A stretch of 22,914 nt of DNA. It comes from Clostridia bacterium (GTDB lineage: Bacteria; Bacillota; Clostridia; TANB77; CAG-465). This document shows, one piece after another, positions 14,007-22,811 of the stretch. Position numbers and translations under genes: made by a program. The notes below the pieces were generated by a model. That model had not been told where the DNA came from. It made no database searches and saw nothing but the letters and a program-made list of their open reading frames with translations. Location of the stretch: the NCBI GenBank assembly GCA_045536565.1, contig JAZSNU010000008.1:1-22914 (forward strand), read 5' to 3'. Within the stretch, counting starts at the first letter, position 1. Each line of letters starts with the position of its first letter.

Positions 14007-15305
14007 TTATTTAATATCTTTATGTTCATTGGTTAGTTTTTTAATCTTTTTATACTCTTTTCTTTCCTCGTTATTTTCATATTTTTTTAATTTTTCATAT
14101 AAATATACTACTTGCAAAAATTCAATCCATAAAAATGCATATAGCAATAATATAGGTGCATATTCCTTTAATATTTCCCCTATAACTGATAATGTGCTTA
14201 TATTATTTCTTTTATCAATATCTTTTTTATTGTTTTGCGTACCTTCACCTTTTAAACTATTTATCTCTTCTTTATTTACCTTTAATGTATATATGTTTTG
14301 TATTTTCTCATTTTCAGAAGTTACTACTATTTTTATAATATTTTCACCTATAACAAGTTTATCATTCCCTATAATCTCAACTTTTGATTTTTCATTTACT
14401 GGAAATGCCGATATTTCTAATGTTTCTACATCTTCTCCTACACTTCCTATATCGTATTCAAATACTTCTGATGAAAACTCTGGTGTTAATATTTTATCTG
14501 TTACTATAATATTTTGTAGATATGCATTTGATTTTATAGGGTCATCTGTTTTCGTAACTATTATTTTATATGTATTTACGGTCTTTTTATCTTGGGCCGT
14601 AACCTTTGCTAAAATGGTATTTTCTCCTTCTTTTAAATCTGTATTTCCAGTTATGCTTACTGTTGCCTTATTATTTTCTGGCACAGCAGTAACACTTAAT
14701 GTATTAATATTTTCATCCACAGTTATAGCATAATTATATATTGTTTTTGAAAAATTAGGAGTTATTCCTGGATAATCTAGTCTAAACTCTTTTAGGTATG
14801 CATTGCTACTTAATGTATTATTTGTGCTTTGACTTGCACCTGTATTTGTTGAAGGCTTTGGTGTTGTGGTATTTACAGATGGCGAGGTATTTGTCGTGTT
14901 ATTAGTGGTAGGTGGCGCGGAAACCACAGGTTTTGCATTTACAGTTACTGTAACACTTCTAGAAATATCCGATGTTACATCTGTTTCTCCATCTGAAATA
15001 TCACCTTTTAAATATATAGTATATGTACCAACTGTATTTGTATTTAAAGTATATGATTTATTTGTTACCTGATTTGCACCCTCTATATTAAATCCAGTTA
15101 CATTACCACCACTTATTCCATTACCACTTACATTAAGATTCCATGCAGCAGCATTTACACTTACATTAATAGTTACATTATCCCCCACATATGCTGATGT
15201 TTTACTCGCTGATATATTTGCAGTTGCTGCATATATGGTACTTGCAAATATTATATTAATTAAAAATATATTCATAATAACTAATCTTTTTAATGTGTTT
15301 TTCAT
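14007..15305 (-). CDS. Membrane-anchored surface protein: signal peptide, cohesin-like/Ig N-domain, P/T/N linker, two cadherin-like beta-sandwich domains, C-terminal TM (anchor 2)
   Basis: IYA/A cleavage site; SSNAYL..TPNF....NY...GNTDLKEGEN.I...VTAQD....TY pattern occurs twice; TM plus Lys-rich tail; AAGGAGGT RBS supports a start at 15305. Confidence 0.8.
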   Translation of the reverse strand: MKNTLKRLVIMNIFLINIIFASTIYAATANISASKTSAYVGDNVTINVSVNAAAWNLNVSGNGISGGNVTGFNIEGANQVTNKSYTLNTNTVGTYTIYLKGDISDGETDVTSDISRSVTVTVNAKPVVSAPPTTNNTTNTSPSVNTTTPKPSTNTGASQSTNNTLSSNAYLKEFRLDYPGITPNFSKTIYNYAITVDENINTLSVTAVPENNKATVSITGNTDLKEGENTILAKVTAQDKKTVNTYKIIVTKTDDPIKSNAYLQNIIVTDKILTPEFSSEVFEYDIGSVGEDVETLEISAFPVNEKSKVEIIGNDKLVIGENIIKIVVTSENEKIQNIYTLKVNKEEINSLKGEGTQNNKKDIDKRNNISTLSVIGEILKEYAPILLLYAFLWIEFLQVVYLYEKLKKYENNEERKEYKKIKKLTNEHKDIK

Positions 15306-15315
15306 TTCTACCTCC

Positions 15316-17553
15316 TTAATCATTTCCTAAATCAGATAAGCCATTTAAATATTTAACTATCTTTAACAAATCTCCTGAATTTATTTTTAAATCGTCTGTT
15401 ACATCCGCAGCTTTTAATACCGTTTCATCATGTATCACATTTGTATTATTTAAATGCTTAACTAATCTTAACAAATCACCCGAATTTATCTTTGAATCTG
15501 AATTTACATCACCAAATATTAGTACTATATACTCATATACTACTTCGTTATTTTCCCCGTTTATTATCTGCACCTTAGTTCCAGTACCTACTAAATCTTC
15601 ATCTGATAGTTCTTTATTATCTATACTTTTTATACTAATATCATAACCTGTTTGTATTTTTGATTTAATATCATATACCGTTGTTTCAGGAGATATTTTA
15701 GATAATATATTACCATCTACATTTATACTTTCATGTATAAAAATATCTTTATCTCCTAAATCTATGACTCTAACTATTGCCTCTTTCTTTATATCAGTTC
15801 CTAGTATATTAACGATTATTTTTGTTTCTCCTTGTTGTAACCCATGTATTTTCCCATCAATTACTTTTGCAATATTTTCATCTGATATCTTTGCTTCATA
15901 CTCATTTATATCTGAATCATCTACTCGCACATTAAACGATGTTTCTTTTCCTTTTATTACAATGTATTCTTCCTTATCTAGTAATATATTAGGTTCTTTT
16001 TTAACTACTTCAATAACACATGTGGCTGTTTTTTGCTGATCTTCTGATGTTGCTGTTATTACTACTGTCCCCTCCTTAACTCCTGTAACTATTCCATCAT
16101 TTGATACTGTTGCAATAGAAGTATCACTTGACTCCCAATATACCTCTTTATATTCAGCGTTACTTGGTAAAATGTTTGCTGTAAGTATTTCAGTATCACC
16201 TGGATTTATTTGCACTAATGATTTATTTAATGTAATACTATCCACCTTTATATATGAATATTCCTTTATATAACTTTGAAACACATACCCTTCTATTCCG
16301 CTATCTAGTCTTACCTTATCCCATCTTTCACCTGCTTGAACACCCCTTGCAATTCTTGTCATAACTGTGTTTTTAGGAATTGTTATTATTGTACTATTCC
16401 CTGTTCCTGCGCCCGACCTTATATTTAAATTAACTGTTGTATATACTTTTGTATTATCCATTACAAACTCTTCTGGATTTTGCATATATATATCAACCGG
16501 TGAATCAGGCATATTATTATATACAGGTATAACAAAGTTAAAAGGTATGTCTAAAAGTCCCATATTTAAATATGCGTTATGTGTTGATATTGCTTCATTG
16601 GCAGGCGCTAAAATATTTTGCATATATTGATGTGTATATAGAGCGGATGATGCATCATCGTTTACATTAAACTTTTGCAGATATGTTGTATATTGACCAA
16701 CACTTATATACTTTTCTGATATAAACTTGGCTCCACCATTTATTGCTTTTTCAGGATCTGTCCACCCCATACTTCTAGCATAGGCAAGCCCTGTTACTGC
16801 CGGGTCACTTCCTCCTGTTGCTCCTATGTTATAGTAATTATATAGTCCAACATAACCTGCAACTGTTCCTTTAATAGATGTATTGTTTTGTATATCACAA
16901 CCTGTTTCTTGTTTTATTCTAGATGCTAAGTGATAAGGACTTACACCATATTTTGACGCTGCTTCCATAACCACCTTGCTATATGTTTTATTAATTGTCT
17001 GAGAATTTCCCTTTGTGTCTACATATGATATATTATTTTTATACATCAAAGTCCCATAAAATATTTTCTCAACACCATCTTGGTTTTGAGTAGTAGAATC
17101 ATAGTTTAATGTTTCAAATTGAAACATTTGCATTTCGTTTAGATACCTTCTTGGGTCCATACTGTATGAAATAGCAAGTTCAGAAGCTGTAACCCATCCT
17201 TCCTCTATTACATTATACTTACCGCTGCTATTTTTCCATTTCCATACTTCTGAAAAAGATAACGGTACTGCACTCCTTATTAAATTTACTCTGGGTCCTT
17301 CATTAAGAACTGCATCATACCAGTTTATACCAGTATTTAACGCGGTAAATGTCCAATTAGGATGCTTTCTATTTAACTCTTTTAAGTATACTTGATAACT
17401 TTCTGGAAATGCTGATATTCCTGTTTCTTTCGTTGCTGCAAAAACATTACCACTTCTATATGTAAATATAATACAAATAACTAGAACTGGTATTTTATAT
17501 ATTTTTAACATTTTATTATTTATTTTTTTTAAACATTTCTTATACGCAAACAA
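15316..17553 (-). CDS. Secreted GH73-like glucosaminidase/autolysin with SH3b, Ig-like (Big_2) domains, X-like module and C-terminal dockerin (hydrolase 2)
   Basis: QET, YNYYNIGA, GW..PEKAINGGA.FI, GQ.T.Y.QKF, HQYMQN; SH3b LNIRSGAGT...W.KV....EGYV; Big_2 WESSD..IATV..DG.VTG...G; duplicated DVNSDSKINSGD/DVTDDLKINSGD; TTG at 17553 has a GGGGAG RBS. Confidence 0.82.
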   Translation of the reverse strand: MFAYKKCLKKINNKMLKIYKIPVLVICIIFTYRSGNVFAATKETGISAFPESYQVYLKELNRKHPNWTFTALNTGINWYDAVLNEGPRVNLIRSAVPLSFSEVWKWKNSSGKYNVIEEGWVTASELAISYSMDPRRYLNEMQMFQFETLNYDSTTQNQDGVEKIFYGTLMYKNNISYVDTKGNSQTINKTYSKVVMEAASKYGVSPYHLASRIKQETGCDIQNNTSIKGTVAGYVGLYNYYNIGATGGSDPAVTGLAYARSMGWTDPEKAINGGAKFISEKYISVGQYTTYLQKFNVNDDASSALYTHQYMQNILAPANEAISTHNAYLNMGLLDIPFNFVIPVYNNMPDSPVDIYMQNPEEFVMDNTKVYTTVNLNIRSGAGTGNSTIITIPKNTVMTRIARGVQAGERWDKVRLDSGIEGYVFQSYIKEYSYIKVDSITLNKSLVQINPGDTEILTANILPSNAEYKEVYWESSDTSIATVSNDGIVTGVKEGTVVITATSEDQQKTATCVIEVVKKEPNILLDKEEYIVIKGKETSFNVRVDDSDINEYEAKISDENIAKVIDGKIHGLQQGETKIIVNILGTDIKKEAIVRVIDLGDKDIFIHESINVDGNILSKISPETTVYDIKSKIQTGYDISIKSIDNKELSDEDLVGTGTKVQIINGENNEVVYEYIVLIFGDVNSDSKINSGDLLRLVKHLNNTNVIHDETVLKAADVTDDLKINSGDLLKIVKYLNGLSDLGND

Positions 17554-17652
17554 TATTTTCACTCCCCAGAAAAGAAAAAATAGCAAACAATAACATGTTT
17601 ATACATATTATTATTTACTATTTTTTTGCATTAATGCATTAATTTACATTAA

Positions 17653-19011
17653 TTATTTTTTATCTTCTTCCTCTGGAAAAATTGGATTTTCTTTAACTCT
17701 TCTTGGCTTTTCAATTTTTTCTTTTTTTACTTTTTCAGGTTTAATCCTTTTTCCAACAGTTATTTTATCAATATCTTCATGTTTTTTTAATCTTTCATAT
17801 AAATATACTATTTGAATAAACTCAATCCATACAAATATATATAGGAAAATAACTGTCATGTTTTCTTTTAATGTATTGTTATAGAAATCTTTAATACCAT
17901 CTACAAAAGATTTTTTATTATTTCTTGAAGAAGTATTTGAATACTGACCATATACATCCACTAATTTATTTTCTTCTTCCGAATATAGTTTATTAAATGA
18001 TACAACATAATCTTTTGTTACTTTACCATTTTCAGAAGTTACTCTTATAGTAACTTTTCCTTCTCCTATTTCTAGATTTTCATTTCCTATAATTTCTATT
18101 TTTGCGGTTTCACTATTTGTATATGCATAAATATTAAGTTTATCAGCCTTAACAGTTATATCACCTGCATTATACTCAGTTATATTAGGATCAAATGTTT
18201 GACCTAAATCAACATCTTCAATTATTAATGAAGATAATGTAGCATCTGATTTTTCAGGATTATCTGATTTTAAAACATTTATAGTATATGTTTTAACCGT
18301 TCCATCCTCTGCTGTTACTCTTACTTTAACTACATTTTCTCCCTCTTTTAAATTAGTATTCCCAGATACTGAATATACTGCTCTACTGTGCTCTACTGAT
18401 GCATTTATTTTTATTTCATTTACATTTTCGCCAACATTTAAAGAATATGCTGTTATATTTTTGCTAAATGCAGGTGTTAATCCTTCAACACTCACAATCA
18501 TATTTTTAAGATTAGCATTTGATGATTTTGCAGTTGCATTATTTGTATTAGTAGTTGGCTTATTTGTTGTGGTGTTATTGTTTGTTGTTTGATTATTATT
18601 TGTATTTGGTTGTGGCGTTGGTGTTACTGGTTGTGTTTGAGGTGGTGGCGCTGGTTGTTTTATTGATATTGATTTACTTGTTGCTGCCACTGTTATTTTG
18701 TTTCCAGCTAAATCTGTTGTTCCCTCAACAGGAGTTGCAGTTATAACTGTTGTTCCACTAGCACCTAATGTTACAGTTACAGATTGAGAATTATTTTCTA
18801 TCCACACTTTATTTGCACTAAGTGTTCCATTACTTGCTGTTAAATTAACTCTTCCTGTAAAATCTCCACCTACTGTAATAGTTACTGCTGTATTTGGATC
18901 TGAACTAGAACTACCAGATAATGTAACTGATGCTGCATATATTTTTGTAGCTAAAAAGCAGCACAAGCACAATGCTAATACACTAATAAACTTTAATTTC
19001 TTTGCTTTCAT
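17653..19011 (-). CDS. Membrane-anchored surface protein, paralog of 14007..15305 (anchor 1)
   Basis: Signal peptide, ~90-aa beta-rich N-domain, P/Q/T/N linker, two cadherin-like domains (GNTNLKEGEN...VTAEDG..KTY), TM WIEFIQIVYLYE, basic tail. Confidence 0.8.
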   Translation of the reverse strand: MKAKKLKFISVLALCLCCFLATKIYAASVTLSGSSSSDPNTAVTITVGGDFTGRVNLTASNGTLSANKVWIENNSQSVTVTLGASGTTVITATPVEGTTDLAGNKITVAATSKSISIKQPAPPPQTQPVTPTPQPNTNNNQTTNNNTTTNKPTTNTNNATAKSSNANLKNMIVSVEGLTPAFSKNITAYSLNVGENVNEIKINASVEHSRAVYSVSGNTNLKEGENVVKVRVTAEDGTVKTYTINVLKSDNPEKSDATLSSLIIEDVDLGQTFDPNITEYNAGDITVKADKLNIYAYTNSETAKIEIIGNENLEIGEGKVTIRVTSENGKVTKDYVVSFNKLYSEEENKLVDVYGQYSNTSSRNNKKSFVDGIKDFYNNTLKENMTVIFLYIFVWIEFIQIVYLYERLKKHEDIDKITVGKRIKPEKVKKEKIEKPRRVKENPIFPEEEDKK

Positions 19012-19027
19012 TTATATCTTCCTTTCA

Positions 19028-21247
19028 TTATTGAGTAATAACATCTTGATTATCACTCATTATATGATTTTTAATTCTTTGATAATCTACTGCAAATATA
19101 TTATCATCACGATCCACATCTGCTGCCATTTTACTAGCACCATCTAATGTTCCTTCATCACTCATTATATGATTTTTTATTTTTTGATAATCTACTGCAT
19201 AAATATATCCATCTCCATCAACATCGCCATATATTACTACGGTATATGATGATATTACTTTTTGATTTGAATCTTTAATGTTAATAGTAGTACCAGTTCC
19301 AACTAAATCATTTTCATTTAATTCTTTACCAGATATATTTTTTAACTCTATATCATATGTAGTTGATATTTTTCCTAACAAGTCTTTTACCTTAGTTTCT
19401 GGATTTATTTTTGTGATTATATCTTCATTAACATTTAGACTTTCATCTATAACTATATCCCCATCTTTAAGTTCTATAACTTTAATAGTTGCTTCCGTTT
19501 TTATATTTGTTCCTTTTAATGTAACAATAAGTTTTGTTTCACCAACTGATACACCAACTATTTTTCCTTCTTCTATCTTAGCAACATTTTCATTTAAAGT
19601 TGCCACTTCATATTCAGTTATATCTGTATCTGTAATAGTCAAATTAAACGAAACTCTTTTATCTTTAATTACACTATATTCTTGTTTATCTAATGTAATG
19701 CTTGGTTCTTTGTTTGTAACTGTAACAACACATTCTGCTGCTTTTGCTTGATCCTTAGTTTTTACAGTTACTATGGCTGATCCTGCTCCTACTCCCCTAA
19801 TATTTCCGTTTCCATCTACTGTAACTATATTGCTATTTGATGTACTCCATGTTACATCTTTAAATCTAGCATCTGTTGGATTTATATTTGCAACAAGTGA
19901 ATATGTGTCTCCAACTTTTACTGTTTTAGTAGTATTATTTAAACTTACTCCTGCCACTTTATTATATGAATATTCATATACATAAGCATTCCATACATAG
20001 CCTTCTATTATCTTTCCATCTTTTTCAAATTGAACATAATCCCAACCTGTATCTATACCTTTTTTAAGTCTTAGCATTACAGTCTTTTTATTTACATCAC
20101 TTGGTTCATTTAATATACATAGCACATTACTTTCATTAGATGAATCTGCCGATGAACGAACTTTAATTCTATCAGATAAATTATCACTAGGATCATCTAA
20201 ATATACCATTGTACTATCATTTTCATAATATCCAATTGTTGGTACAGGTGCTGCCATAGCCGGCATATTATCATAAACTGGTATATAGAAAGTATATACA
20301 TTATCTAGTGTACCTGCTCTTGATATTCCAGTATATGCATGCTTTGCTTCTCCCATTGGTGCAGATATATTAGTCATATATTGCCAAGAAAGCATCATAG
20401 TTGCATTACCATATGGATTTGCAACATCAAACTTTTGGAAATATACTGTATTTTGACCATATTTAACATATTTACTATTTAACCAATCCATACCACCTGC
20501 TATTGCAAGTTTAGGTGTATTCCATCCCATCGAATATGCTAAGTTTATACCTGCTTGTACAGCACCATTTCCATCTACCGCACCTATATTAAAGAAGTTG
20601 TAATAACCCGGGTATTTTGAATTTTTACCATTTATTGACCCATTGTTTATAATATCACAAGAAGTTTCTTGCCTTGTTCTAGATATTATAAAAGTAGGGG
20701 CTATCTTCTTTTCTGTTCCAACATTTTTTATTATACTAGCATATGTCTCATTTTCAAAACTAGCATTATACATAGGTGTATTATATGCTACCTCATTTAC
20801 AGCCGCTTCTGTATCTGATTCTATATTCATATCAATTACTCTAAATTGGAATATACCTTGGTCATTTAAGAAGTTTCTTGGATCCAGTACATATGCAACT
20901 GCTGCTCTTGATGCAAGAACAAAACCTGCTGCATCATATGAGCTACTTCCCGCTTCTTCTAATCTTTTCCAAGCATCTCCATAAGCAGAATTTTGAACTC
21001 TTGAATATGTTCCAGAAGCCTCTGAATTTAAAACTGTATTCCAATCTAAATGTGTATGAAATGCTTTAAGCACCCAGTTTGGATGTTCTTTTTTTATTTT
21101 ATCTATATAACTTTGATAACTTGCTGGAAATGTATCGTTAATTGTTGATGTAGCAAAACCATAACAACAATTTTTTCCAAACACAAGCATCATAACAAAC
21201 AAAAATAGTAAATATATATATTTCTTCTTTAAAACCCTTTTTAACAT
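19028..21247 (-). CDS. Secreted GH73-like glucosaminidase with SH3-like, Ig-like domains, X-like module and dockerin (hydrolase 1)
   Basis: FPASYQ.Y...HPNW, LDPRNFL, QET, YNFFNIGA, GW.TP..AI.GG, GQNT.YFQKF, QYMTN; duplicated DVDGDGYIYAVD/DVDRDDNIFAVD; colinear with hydrolase 2. Confidence 0.82.
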   Translation of the reverse strand: MLKRVLKKKYIYLLFLFVMMLVFGKNCCYGFATSTINDTFPASYQSYIDKIKKEHPNWVLKAFHTHLDWNTVLNSEASGTYSRVQNSAYGDAWKRLEEAGSSSYDAAGFVLASRAAVAYVLDPRNFLNDQGIFQFRVIDMNIESDTEAAVNEVAYNTPMYNASFENETYASIIKNVGTEKKIAPTFIISRTRQETSCDIINNGSINGKNSKYPGYYNFFNIGAVDGNGAVQAGINLAYSMGWNTPKLAIAGGMDWLNSKYVKYGQNTVYFQKFDVANPYGNATMMLSWQYMTNISAPMGEAKHAYTGISRAGTLDNVYTFYIPVYDNMPAMAAPVPTIGYYENDSTMVYLDDPSDNLSDRIKVRSSADSSNESNVLCILNEPSDVNKKTVMLRLKKGIDTGWDYVQFEKDGKIIEGYVWNAYVYEYSYNKVAGVSLNNTTKTVKVGDTYSLVANINPTDARFKDVTWSTSNSNIVTVDGNGNIRGVGAGSAIVTVKTKDQAKAAECVVTVTNKEPSITLDKQEYSVIKDKRVSFNLTITDTDITEYEVATLNENVAKIEEGKIVGVSVGETKLIVTLKGTNIKTEATIKVIELKDGDIVIDESLNVNEDIITKINPETKVKDLLGKISTTYDIELKNISGKELNENDLVGTGTTINIKDSNQKVISSYTVVIYGDVDGDGYIYAVDYQKIKNHIMSDEGTLDGASKMAADVDRDDNIFAVDYQRIKNHIMSDNQDVITQ

Positions 21248-21363: not shown

Positions 21364-21389
21364 AAAAAGTGATGCCTAAACATCACTTT
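21364..21389 (-). terminator. Intrinsic terminator after the pilin-LRR gene
   Basis: aaagtgatg-cctaaa-catcacttt hairpin with A-tract. Confidence 0.75.
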
Positions 21390-21449: not shown

Positions 21450-22811
21450 TTATGAATTACAATGGATTGTTGCTGTTGAAAAACACGCATTACCCTCATC
21501 AGTATTATCAATTGTTATTTCTTCCCATTGTGCTTGTGTACCTTTATAATATACATCTGTTATAGGAGTACCACCAAACGCTGCATATTTAATATTAGTT
21601 ACACTACTTGGAATTGTTATACTTGTTAGATTCATACATCCTATAAACGCACCACTATCTATGCTAGTTACACCGTCCGGAATAGTTACACTTGTTAAAC
21701 TACTACACATTTCAAATGTTCCCTCGCCGATGCTTGTTGTTCCTTCTTCAATCGTTACAGTTGTTAAATTTTGACAATCACTAAATACACTACGACCAAT
21801 ACTTGTTATACTATTTGGTATTGTTATGTCTATTAGTCCAGTACTTGAAAATGCATAATCACCTATACTTGTTACACTATCTGGGATTGTTATGCTTGTT
21901 AAATTATAGCAACCAGAAAACATATTATCAGATATTCTTGTTGTACCTTCTTCGAATGTTACATTTGTTAGATGAGATCCTTTAAACACATATCCACCCA
22001 TATTTTCTATGGTATTTGGAATTGTTATGCTTGTTAGACCAGAATCAACAAACGCATTACTACCTATACTAGTTACACTGTCCGGGATTGTTATAGTTCC
22101 TAGGTTAGAGCAACACCCAAACGCACCCTCACCTATACTTGTTACACTATTTGGGATTGTTATAGTTTCTAGTGCATGGCAAATATAAAATGCATATCCA
22201 CCTATACTTGTTACGCTACTTGGGATTGTTATACTTGTTAAATTTCTATAATCCTGAAACGCATTATCAGCTATCTTTGTTACGCCTTTTGGTATAACAA
22301 TTTCTGTAATTTCTTGTGTGTGTTCTTCATCCGCATATACATGAAAACCTGTATAGTATTCCACATCATATCCCTTGTATTGCTCTTTTATACCCTTAAA
22401 CTCGCCATTTTCTACTACACATAAGTACGCATAACTATTATCCCAAAGCTCTTCTATACCTATTTCGTCAAGATATGCTCTTTCATCAGCAGTTACTTTT
22501 TCTCCAATATACATTAGTTTTTGATTTGATATTACAAATTTTTCAGGATATTTTTGTGCACTATCTAATACTGTTTCTGCTGCTACCCCTTCTAATGTAT
22601 GTGCCTCATTTTTTAGTATTGCATCTGCTAGTTTAATAGATAATTCTTCTTGTATTGATTTTACATCTGTCTTAAATGCTGCTTCACTTGCCTTACCGAT
22701 TATTCCACTATTTGATAATGATAGAATAATTGCTGCTGCTAGGATTATCATTACTATTATTGTTATTACTAACACAATCAATGATATTCCTCTTTTGTTT
22801 GTTTTTTTCAT
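21450..22811 (-). CDS. Type IV pilin-like N-terminus fused to BspA/TpLRR (LRR_5) repeats
   Basis: Class III signal MKKTNKRG|ISLIVLVITIIVMIILA; about 10 repeats of LTSITIPxSVTSIGxxAFxxC; C-terminal cap VYYKGT..QW..I....GN....ATIH. Confidence 0.88.
   Translation of the reverse strand: MKKTNKRGISLIVLVITIIVMIILAAAIILSLSNSGIIGKASEAAFKTDVKSIQEELSIKLADAILKNEAHTLEGVAAETVLDSAQKYPEKFVISNQKLMYIGEKVTADERAYLDEIGIEELWDNSYAYLCVVENGEFKGIKEQYKGYDVEYYTGFHVYADEEHTQEITEIVIPKGVTKIADNAFQDYRNLTSITIPSSVTSIGGYAFYICHALETITIPNSVTSIGEGAFGCCSNLGTITIPDSVTSIGSNAFVDSGLTSITIPNTIENMGGYVFKGSHLTNVTFEEGTTRISDNMFSGCYNLTSITIPDSVTSIGDYAFSSTGLIDITIPNSITSIGRSVFSDCQNLTTVTIEEGTTSIGEGTFEMCSSLTSVTIPDGVTSIDSGAFIGCMNLTSITIPSSVTNIKYAAFGGTPITDVYYKGTQAQWEEITIDNTDEGNACFSTATIHCNS
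21570..22290 (-). repeat. Coding tandem repeats (66-69 bp LRR units)
   Basis: Recurrent cctatacttgttacact..tgggattgttat units. Confidence 0.8.

Follow-up and report, generated by a model that had tools for sequence, protein, structure and literature searches.

Tandem pairs of dockerin-bearing wall hydrolases and membrane-anchored stalk proteins in small-genome gut Clostridia: a candidate surface-tethering system

How Gram-positive bacteria place potentially lethal wall hydrolases is an open question for most lineages, and to our knowledge nothing is known about it in the uncultured, small-genome gut Clostridia. The question is raised by a 22,914-nucleotide stretch of DNA from one such organism, Clostridia bacterium (assembly GCA_045536565.1, contig JAZSNU010000008.1), which is here called the window. 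The window is the entire 22.9-kb contig, and the host genome is 1.13 Mb in size, 100% complete and ~28% G+C. On its minus strand, between positions 14007 and 21247, the list of open reading frames (ORFs) and their translations reveal two tandem gene pairs, each consisting of a gene for a dockerin-bearing GH73-like hydrolase (Hyd1 or Hyd2) and a gene for a membrane-anchored protein (Anc1 or Anc2). A sequence-only reading of the window had proposed that this is a noncellulosomal cohesin-dockerin system, in which each anchor is the dedicated receptor of the hydrolase encoded next to it. Is each anchor the receptor of its neighbor, and if so, what kind of receptor is it? Comparative evidence supports a matched one-to-one tether well, and we think it probable that the two genes of each pair encode a unit that tethers a peptidoglycan N-acetylglucosaminidase to the cell surface and would thereby retain it on the producing cell for wall turnover or cell separation.

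Architecture and linkage of the gene pairs

In pair 1, Hyd1 (minus strand, 19028-21247; 739 amino acids [aa]) was recognized as a secreted GH73-like glucosaminidase from the ORF call, Pfam profiles and matches in the Protein Data Bank (PDB), and it is followed by the membrane-anchored stalk protein Anc1 (minus strand, 17653-19011; 452 aa), recognized from the ORF call, Pfam and alignment. In pair 2, Hyd2 (minus strand, 15316-17511) has 731 aa when read from an inferred ATG at 17511; the listed ORF extends to a TTG at 17586, which lies 75 nucleotides (nt) upstream of this likely start. Anc2, also a membrane-anchored stalk protein (minus strand, 14007-15305), is read from an inferred ATG at 15305, the listed ORF extending to 15323. 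With the inferred starts, hydrolase and anchor genes are separated by 16 nt in pair 1 and by 10 nt in pair 2, and the two-gene module that the sequence-only reading had seen twice in a row is present as four minus-strand ORFs.

Hyd1 consists, in order, of a signal peptide, a catalytic domain, an SH3-like stretch, a Big_2 domain, a second immunoglobulin (Ig)-like domain, a stretch called the X module and a dockerin. Hyd2 is its paralogue (38% identical), combining a GH73-like region with SH3_3, Big_2, a second Ig-like domain, an X module and a dockerin, and signal peptides are visible in both translations. The catalytic region of Hyd1 (minus strand, 20243-21160; ~aa 30-335), delimited by phmmer searches of the PDB and by conservation, matches solved GH73 enzymes, namely 6fxo (Staphylococcus aureus Atl; E value, 2.7e-11), 6fxp (7.7e-11), 6u0o (1e-10), 4pi7 (1.8e-7) and 5wqw (8e-5); 6fxp and 6u0o are SagB, and AtlE was also matched. 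The NCBIfam SagB model matches the two hydrolases at 6.2e-12 and 1e-14, far below the cut-off of the model. In the alignment, 'SRTRQETSC' of Hyd1 stands against 'SHALLETGA' of SagB, with the Glu of 'RQETS' opposite the Glu of 'LLETG'; the equivalent motif of Hyd2 is 'SRIKQETGC', and Q193, E194 and T195 of Hyd1 are ≥90% conserved among 16 sequences. We take the Glu of this 'ET(G/S)' motif to be the catalytic residue. The wording 'GH73-like' is used because the Pfam Glucosaminidase model (PF01832) misses both hydrolases, and the sole match in a six-frame search of the genome with it was another ORF, on contig 12, at a sub-cut-off 27.4 bits.

Big_2 (PF02368) is called in both hydrolases, at 57.7 bits in Hyd1 (minus strand, 19724-19957; aa 431-508) and 77.1 bits in Hyd2; the second Ig-like match (HL_N-beta) is sub-threshold in both, and SH3_3 is above its cut-off in Hyd2 alone (30.8 bits), the aligned stretch of Hyd1 not being called. 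The X module of Hyd1 (minus strand, 19232-19462; aa 596-672) lies directly before the dockerin and belongs to no known family. It is a real interdomain stretch, folded at a predicted local distance difference test score (pLDDT) of 93-94 in the complex prediction described below. It has no Pfam match, and the PDB sequence matches of aa 596-739 fall on the dockerin part alone; the best of them, 8x39, is a tandem dockerin of a serine protease, which leaves the X module without a solved sequence relative. The GH73-like, Ig, X and dockerin parts of the architecture described by the sequence-only reading stand for both proteins, its SH3 domain being called by Pfam in Hyd2 only.

The dockerins themselves are clear. 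The Dockerin_1 profile (PF00404; cut-off, 22.9 bits) scores 41.9 bits in Hyd1 (minus strand, 19031-19231) and 42.3 bits in Hyd2 (minus strand, 15343-15513), and a six-frame search gives 45.7 bits at 19061-19231 and 47.4 bits, respectively. Two repeats of a calcium loop and a helix (F-hand) are visible in each, DVDGDGYIYAVDYQKIKNHI and DVDRDDNIFAVDYQRIKNHI in Hyd1 and DVNSDSKINSGDLLRLVKHL and DVTDDLKINSGDLLKIVKYL in Hyd2. The helices differ in type, reading 'A-V-D-Y-Q-x-I-K-N-H-I-M' in Hyd1 and 'I-N-S-G-D-L-L-x-x-V-K-x-L' in Hyd2.

Anc1 has a signal peptide, an N-terminal domain that forms the tip, a P/T/N-rich linker, two cadherin-like domains, a transmembrane (TM) helix and a K/E-rich cytoplasmic tail. 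Anc2 (35% identical) has the same architecture, and the translations and Pfam bear out the sequence-only reading on this point. Neither tip, as found in the N-terminal ~100 residues, has a Pfam match. That of Anc1 (type A; minus strand, 18646-18933; aa 27-122), an Ig beta-sandwich of the Big_2-like kind, is proposed to receive the Hyd1 dockerin, and that of Anc2 (type B, 'AAAWNL'; minus strand, 14928-15227), a beta-sandwich of 100 aa, to receive the Hyd2 dockerin. The Cadherin-like profile (PF12733; cut-off, 24.2 bits) gives 55.5 bits for Anc1 and 66.8 bits for Anc2. The individual domains lie on the minus strand at 18271-18486 and 17992-18222 in Anc1 (46.5 and 31.3 bits in the six-frame search) and at 14550-14771 and 14271-14486 in Anc2 (41.9 and 37.7 bits). 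A search of representative sequences with Anc2 was dominated by giant proteins carrying many cadherin-like repeats.

The TM helices (minus strand, 17797-17859 in Anc1 and 14097-14159 in Anc2) carry the motifs W-I-E-F-I-Q-I-V-Y-L-Y and W-I-E-F-L-Q-V-V-Y-L-Y, and F398, Y403, L404 and Y405 are invariant in 27 sequences. The motif contains polar residues, (I/V)-E-F-(I/L)-Q-(I/V)-V-Y-L-Y, and in a subgroup (e.g., P0038 and P0047) E and Q have traded places (V-Q-F-I-E-I-V-Y-L-Y). Such an exchange hints at pairing, either between the two residues or with a partner in the membrane, and the anchor may thus be more than a passive tether.

A pattern scan with the conserved TM motif, using one genome per species, yielded 78 related loci, all from metagenome-assembled genomes (MAGs) of uncultured gut Clostridia. 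Eight loci could not be called, the anchor lying at a contig start. At 62 of the 70 callable loci (64 pairs), a hydrolase-like ORF ends ≤300 nt upstream of an anchor-like ORF on the same strand. The pairing far exceeds chance expectation and is not due to chance; the linkage in related genomes on which the sequence-only reading had staked its proposal is real. The eight loci without it contain more distant cadherin-like proteins, five of them adjoining ORFs of 1094-1877 aa. In these distant loci (L051, L054, L057, L060 and L083, and also L074 and L079), a large ORF of this length, cut at the start of the locus, precedes one or two genes for membrane proteins of ~410-900 aa, which contain cadherin-like domains, and the MAGs are labeled Ruminococcus, Bacillota, 'Mycoplasma' and Tenericutes. 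The upstream protein of a further locus, L078, carries four cadherin-like domains and a dockerin.

Dockerins are a nearly constant feature of the upstream gene. Of 71 hydrolase-like ORFs, 66 were scanned, five N-terminal or cut pieces being left out; Dockerin_1 was found at an E value of ≤1e-3 in 65 and above its cut-off in 64, the exceptions being L067 (no match) and L033 (22.4 bits). The modules in the middle of these ORFs differ, being Big_2 plus Ig, two to three SH3_3 domains, or none. Cadherin-like domains were found in all 65 anchor-like ORFs. In the second of the two families described below, many anchors carry SH3_3 between tip and stalk (L039, L044, L045, L053, L063, L069, L071-L073, L076 and others), and their hydrolases have one to three SH3_3 domains in place of Big_2, so that both partners bear wall-binding modules.

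Among 151 sampled genomes of the order, the anchor family was found in nearly all members of two families, the window's own (51 of 52) and a second one (48 of 52), and in none of the 46 genomes of three further families; the corresponding figures for dockerins are 51/52, 48/52 and 17/46. Eight genomes of the window's own family, 1.3-1.7 Mb in size (G387, G393, G396, G402, G416, G440, G444 and G450), contain 11-19 dockerin matches each, most of their relatives having 1-6, which may reflect the expansion, in one genus, of a larger surface system built on dockerins.

Within the host genome, six-frame Pfam searches found two dockerins in total, those of Hyd1 and Hyd2, and four cadherin-like matches, all within Anc1 and Anc2; Pfam Cohesin had no match anywhere in the genome, even at an E value of ≤10. 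No plant-fiber glycoside hydrolases were found among the other 14 window ORFs scanned, and the statement of the sequence-only reading that the window lacks cellulases holds. With both dockerins on wall hydrolases, no Pfam cohesins and no fiber-degrading enzymes in the window, the makings of a cellulosome-type scaffoldin system are missing; the pair would act like an anchoring scaffoldin and yet is not a cellulosome.

Co-variation of dockerin and anchor tip

Among the anchors, the stalk and TM helix are conserved and the N-terminal domain comes in many unrelated-looking types, which are paired with particular dockerins. Big_2-like tips, including that of Anc1, occur with dockerins carrying the motif 'x-DY-xx-(I/V)KN-x-I'; 'AAAWN' tips, including that of Anc2, with 'NS(G/A)DL(L/F)' dockerins; 'VNTVDLTATVSGAG' tips with 'DSMDMYN.IQ.IL' dockerins; and cohesin-looking tips with classical 'DLLxLQRHIL' dockerins. 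The two window pairs thus have different dockerin and tip types, as fits one-to-one dedicated receptors, and five additional genomes match the same code by eye.

This relationship was quantified in 59 pairs, the 2 of the window and those of 57 loci; eight loci that were cut, split, ambiguous or without a dockerin were left out (L023, L026, L063, L065, L067, L070, L072 and L084). The Mantel correlation between dockerin and tip is 0.75, a value reached by 0 of 2000 permutations in a first extraction of the domains and 0 of 5000 in a second. The dockerin follows the cadherin region (r = 0.29) and the catalytic domain (r = 0.18) far less closely, and these two backbone parts correlate with each other at 0.66, reflecting shared descent. 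When either backbone part is controlled for, the partial correlation between dockerin and tip is 0.72-0.74. The correlation is found both within the Big_2-like class (r = 0.64; n = 33) and outside it (r = 0.83; n = 26), and clusterings of the two domains agree with an adjusted Rand index of 0.53-0.96 over four threshold settings, the permutation maxima being 0.31-0.37.

Comparison of individual loci gave the same picture. Among loci with a close backbone, 37 locus pairs have unrelated tips and a dockerin similarity of 0.18-0.47, although by our reading these represent roughly a dozen independent events, so that the statistics overstate independence; 29 locus pairs with the same tip have a mean dockerin similarity of 0.85 and a minimum of 0.66. 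Conversely, in 24 locus pairs with a distant backbone and related tips, the dockerins are related too (0.35-0.75). Loci whose stalks are 90-95% similar can bear unrelated dockerins.

The boundaries of the exchanged DNA can be read directly. Pair 1 of the window and L009, the nearest relative whose tip differs, are 75-89% identical in DNA through the catalytic, SH3/Ig and X regions. Identity drops to ~45-57% where the dockerin begins, stays there across the signal peptide, tip and linker of the anchor, and rises again to 83-87% from the first cadherin-like domain. L011 and L030 are 85-96% identical outside the cassette and 41-62% inside it, with identity resuming exactly at the end of the tip domain; here the X module lies within the replaced tract, whereas between the window and L009 it lies outside. 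Dockerin and tip are therefore replaced jointly as one DNA cassette, and the catalytic domain and stalk are kept. At one further locus, L084 (5200-6000, plus strand), a single frame runs from a complete dockerin into a tip of the cohesin-like type E1 (see below) and on into cadherin-like domains, with no stop codon and no signal peptide between dockerin and tip, and the catalytic part is encoded by another ORF, which overlaps this frame. L084 may be a natural dockerin-tip fusion, a frameshift or assembly error in the MAG being possible. As for the cause of the swapping, it is possible that the socket, as the most exposed tip of the surface structure, is under pressure from phages or antibodies.

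Tether model, nature of the tips and rival explanations

In the arrangement that we favor, the hydrolase would be exported through its signal peptide, and its C-terminal, calcium-binding dockerin would plug into the beta-sandwich tip of the anchor encoded by the next gene. The anchor would be a single-pass membrane protein with its N terminus outside, the linker and two cadherin-like domains forming a stalk over the TM helix, and the enzyme would be retained on the producing cell, either inside the cell's own wall or on its outer side. The 'DY..IKNHIM' dockerin of Hyd1 would engage the Big_2-like tip of Anc1 and the 'NSGDLL..VK.L' dockerin of Hyd2 the shortened, cohesin-like tip of Anc2, so that the two paralogous enzymes would each be held by an anchor of their own. 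In this proposal, physical binding, calcium dependence, position in the wall and physiological role are inferred from the observed architecture, linkage, co-variation and mosaic structure. The sequence-only reading had envisaged the same dedicated one-to-one relationship, with a putative set distance between enzyme and membrane; the matched dockerin-tip types and cassette mosaics speak for it, and its receptor in the form of a recognizable cohesin did not materialize.

Structure prediction is weakly in favor of contact in pair 1. The Hyd1 X-dockerin segment (aa 596-739, 16-row alignment) and the Anc1 tip (9-row alignment) were modeled together with two calcium ions, and the runs scored 0.48, 0.39 and 0.43 (median, 0.43), the best of three controls scoring 0.00. 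The runs agreed in 100% of contacts, and the partner had a pLDDT of ≥93. In calibration, 116 of 157 solved complexes passed the mark, as did 2 of 215 mismatched pairs; just 18 of the 157 solved complexes scored ≤0.60, as did both of the passing mismatches, so that a prediction in this range, graded as weak support, is more often wrong than right unless the complex is likely beforehand. Beside the co-variation the predicted complex adds a little; alone it is weak.

Several results weigh against a tether of this kind. The weak range of the complex score is one, and the failure of Pfam Glucosaminidase to match either hydrolase at an E value of ≤0.1 is another. A further point is the nature of the tips. 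Pfam Cohesin (PF00963) has no match on Anc1 or Anc2 at an E value of ≤10, whether the whole proteins or the isolated tips are searched, and the tips were compared by hhalign with a profile of 17 true cohesins, for which 301 genomes of the phylum were sampled and 24 were used; type A of Anc1 gave a probability of 17.7% and type B of Anc2 one of 16.8%. Fold searches with the tips yield generic Ig-like matches, and no precedent for a dockerin binding a Big_2-like domain was found in the literature. Finally, the dockerin and tip modules are only ~100 nt apart, and replacement of a single contiguous tract would therefore produce co-variation even without binding, to which comes the limited independence of the swaps described above.

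The family of related anchors places these negative results in context. Pfam Cohesin matches none of the 65 related anchors at an E value of ≤0.01, and isolated tips from outside the window give sub-threshold Cohesin matches in 7 of 15 cases (best, 20.7 bits; cut-off, 24.1 bits). In the hhalign comparisons, tips of type E1 align with the cohesin profile at 95.8% (E value, 6.7e-9; 97 columns), those of type F/G at 89.5% over 97 columns, and those of type E2 at 91.8% over 38 columns. Type B of Anc2 in turn aligns with F/G at 93.9% (E value, 1.5e-7; 97 columns) and with E2 at 94.0%. Type A of Anc1 aligns instead with the Big_2-like type C at 98.6% (E value, 1.4e-15), and type C gives 14% with cohesin. 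An initial value of 95.2% between types B and A was rejected as an artifact of signal-peptide columns; once the signal peptides were trimmed it fell to 26%, with the alignment out of register. Pfam Big_2 has no match on the Anc1 tip itself, and type C tips exceed the Big_2 cut-off of 22.8 bits in four anchors (26.6, 23.7, 23.4 and 31.5 bits). A PDB profile search with the E1 tip alignment returned nothing relevant.

Structural comparison is less discriminating. AlphaFold2 (AF2) models of the tips of Anc1 (96 aa; pLDDT, 95.0) and Anc2 (100 aa; pLDDT, 96.4) have 8 strands each. Foldseek found nothing in the PDB at an E value of ≤1e-3 for either model, cohesins appearing at ranks 10, 28 and 40, and VIA Z scores of 8.2-9.1 to Clostridium perfringens cohesins, over 93-98 residues, were tied with or ≤1.5 below those of generic Ig-like domains. 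Judging from the profile comparisons, there seem to be two receptor lineages, one cohesin-derived, to which Anc2 is joined through intermediates, and one Big_2-like, which includes Anc1. The tip of Anc2 is probably a shortened relative of cohesin. The cohesin label of the sequence-only reading fails for Anc1 and is at most transitively plausible for Anc2. Of the profiles bearing on that reading, Dockerin_1, Big_2 and Cadherin-like were recovered in the four proteins, SH3_3 in Hyd2 only, and Cohesin and Glucosaminidase in none of them.

The alternative that survives best attributes the co-variation to linkage and not to binding. An exposed tip or dockerin would have been diversified under pressure from phages or host antibodies, its neighbor being carried along by recombination, and the dockerin would have some other ligand, such as a wall polymer or the product of an unlinked receptor gene, or would just stabilize the enzyme. 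The closeness of the modules suits this explanation, as do the contiguity of the swapped tract, which includes the signal peptide and at times the linker or X module, and the window tips, which are not recognizable cohesins. Nor was a match between unlinked genes found in five relatives; 15 of their 18 extra dockerins were inspected, and all differ in type from the hydrolase dockerin, so that no such match could be demonstrated, which neither supports nor refutes binding. We nevertheless consider linkage alone an unlikely explanation. The left edge of the tract exchanged with L009 lies at the start of the dockerin, whereas a replacement of the tip only could have stopped in the intergenic gap. 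All 37 close-backbone pairs with differing tips differ in dockerin, and all 29 with the same tip share it. Some members of the family combine cohesin-related tips with classical dockerins, L084 appears to fuse dockerin and tip, the predicted complex scores 0.43 against 0.00 for the controls, and the genome, which has no Pfam cohesin at an E value of ≤10, offers no other candidate receptor.

A second alternative accepts the tether and reverses its aim, the stalk-displayed glucosaminidases serving to lyse or graze on neighboring bacteria. Dockerin-bearing lysozyme-type enzymes of rumen cellulosomes are read as tools of attack or defense in the relevant passages of Bensoussan et al. 2017 (PMC6487960), and the 'lyticome' idea appears in those of Vermassen et al. 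2019 (PMC6403190). A 1.13-Mb genome would fit dependence on other cells, and the stalk, together with the four noncatalytic modules of the hydrolase, would give a long reach. This outward role seems to us less likely again than linkage. Atl, SagB and AtlE, the closest solved relatives, act on the wall of their producer, and the occurrence of the pair in almost every sampled genome of two families agrees better with a housekeeping autolysin, as does the small number of other wall hydrolases in the genome: one Amidase_3, one SpoIID and one sub-threshold Glucosaminidase match, with no NLPC_P60 in the genome. The neighboring genes are also of the housekeeping type (RadA-like, CorA, PnuC, phosphoglucomutase and amidohydrolase). 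Taking the scarcity of other wall hydrolases, the near-universal pair and the housekeeping context together, we regard Hyd1 and Hyd2 as the principal glucosaminidases of vegetative growth; they most likely serve wall turnover or daughter-cell separation, a role inferred from context, the results as such bearing equally on an own and a foreign target. Very improbable, finally, is that the dockerin binds the conserved cadherin-like stalk or that the pair is a prophage or endolysin-type module: although cadherin-like domains are constant in all 65 anchors and GH73 domains are found in phage lysins too, the dockerin tracks the cadherin region weakly and the tip strongly after correction, stalks of 90-95% similarity bear unrelated dockerins, and a phage origin was rejected on account of the signal peptides of both hydrolases, the housekeeping neighbors and the near-universal presence in two families.

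Genomic surroundings, known systems and significance

Promoter and terminator consensus scans provide a few hints on transcription. Two promoter-like sites lie ahead of Hyd1 (minus strand, 21308-21280 and 21289-21262), and the 141 nt between the Anc1 stop and the Hyd2 ATG are accompanied by weak promoter-like matches at 17714-17686 and 17679-17652; promoter-like sites are not commoner in the window than in shuffled sequence, 45 being found against 54.8 expected. No terminator-like site was found within the four-gene block. Pairs 1 and 2 may be transcribed separately. Upstream of the block (minus strand, 21450-22811) lies a gene for a 453-aa BspA-type leucine-rich-repeat (LRR) protein (LRR_5, 334 bits), whose hydrophobic N-terminal segment after 'KRG' resembles a pilin-type or simple N-terminal anchor. 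It is a further surface protein adjoining the hydrolase genes, and a terminator-like hairpin that matches the consensus (minus strand, 21366-21389) lies between them.

A dockerin on a GH73 enzyme outside the cellulosome is already known. In Ruminococcus bicirculans, a GH73 enzyme is tied to the single dockerin and cohesin of the genome (Ze et al. 2015, citing Wegmann et al. 2014; PMC4611034). According to that passage, R. bicirculans is likewise a noncellulolytic gut Firmicute whose dockerin system, the only one in its genome, concerns a GH73 wall hydrolase; its genome annotation includes a recognizable cohesin, whereas here the sockets fail direct cohesin sequence tests and one is Big_2-like. 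Cassette swapping, a cadherin-like stalk and a TM anchor, all seen here, are absent from the R. bicirculans passage of PMC4611034. The window further differs in having two pairs in tandem, whose plugs and sockets are of different types.

Anchoring proteins with a single cohesin, from cellulosome and amylosome systems, include OlpA, OlpC and SdbA of Clostridium thermocellum and ScaE of Ruminococcus flavefaciens. The proposed tether resembles them in that a protein anchored at the surface would display a single socket for a partner with a dockerin. Their nine-stranded jelly-roll cohesins of ~140 aa dock plant-fiber or starch enzymes or scaffoldins, whereas the tips described here have 96-100 aa and 8 predicted strands, the cargo is a peptidoglycan hydrolase, and the partners are encoded one-to-one by adjacent genes. 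Ruminococci also have TM-anchored single-cohesin proteins, and divergent cohesins are missed by hidden Markov models, according to the pertinent part of PMC13463774. The cohesin-dockerin modules of C. perfringens GH84 and GH33 enzymes (PDB 2w1n, 2vo8 and 2jh2) are noncellulosomal too, but they link secreted glycosidases and toxins to each other and not to a membrane anchor; they have no sequence similarity to the window tips, and their structural match is tied with or below that of generic Ig-like domains.

Membrane proteins also position glucosaminidases by other means, as SpdC does with SagB in S. aureus (PDB 6u0o), which belongs to the nearest solved relative class of the hydrolases. SagB has a TM helix of its own and a polytopic partner; neither a dockerin nor a stalk nor an Ig-like socket takes part, and there is no homology between the partners. 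In its evolutionary pattern alone, the locus resembles CdiA-CT/CdiI, in which the ends of adjacent genes are replaced as a matched pair and the remaining locus is conserved; no toxin or immunity function is implied, and the modules exchanged here are a dockerin and a beta-sandwich tip. The dockerin-bearing lysozyme-type modules of rumen and ruminococcal systems share with the hydrolases a peptidoglycan-cleaving catalytic module that bears a dockerin; as described in the corresponding sections of PMC6487960 and PMC6403190, they join the multienzyme scaffoldins of fiber degraders and are read as weapons, whereas the dockerins here are the only ones in the genome and have adjacent anchors of their own. 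Our literature search found no paper on pairs of a GH73-dockerin protein and a TM anchor, and nothing on cassette co-variation, tandem orthogonal pairs or a non-cohesin (Big_2-like) dockerin receptor; its scope was the main texts, and Tables S4 and S5 in the supplement of PMC6487960 may list lysozymes with dockerins.

One broader proposal we put forward tentatively, doubting it more than the tether itself: dockerins may have a second, non-cohesin class of receptor, the Big_2-like Ig domain of Anc1 and 32 others among the 59 pairs, acting as part of an exchangeable matched cassette in a core, lineage-defining form of autolysin control and swapped between strains and distant lineages, much like toxin-immunity modules. 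If true, a Big_2-like receptor would widen the notion of a cohesin and help to explain orphan dockerins in genomes without recognizable cohesins. The cassette pattern makes the specificity of dockerin and tip directly testable, and a dozen or more matched plug and socket types, with sockets of 96-125 aa, amount to a natural set of orthogonal connectors that could be useful for surface display. For the organisms themselves, the tether model, if true, would mean that 99 of the 104 genomes sampled from two families of gut Clostridia hold their housekeeping autolysins on a private leash, for which a connector of the cellulosome has been reused.

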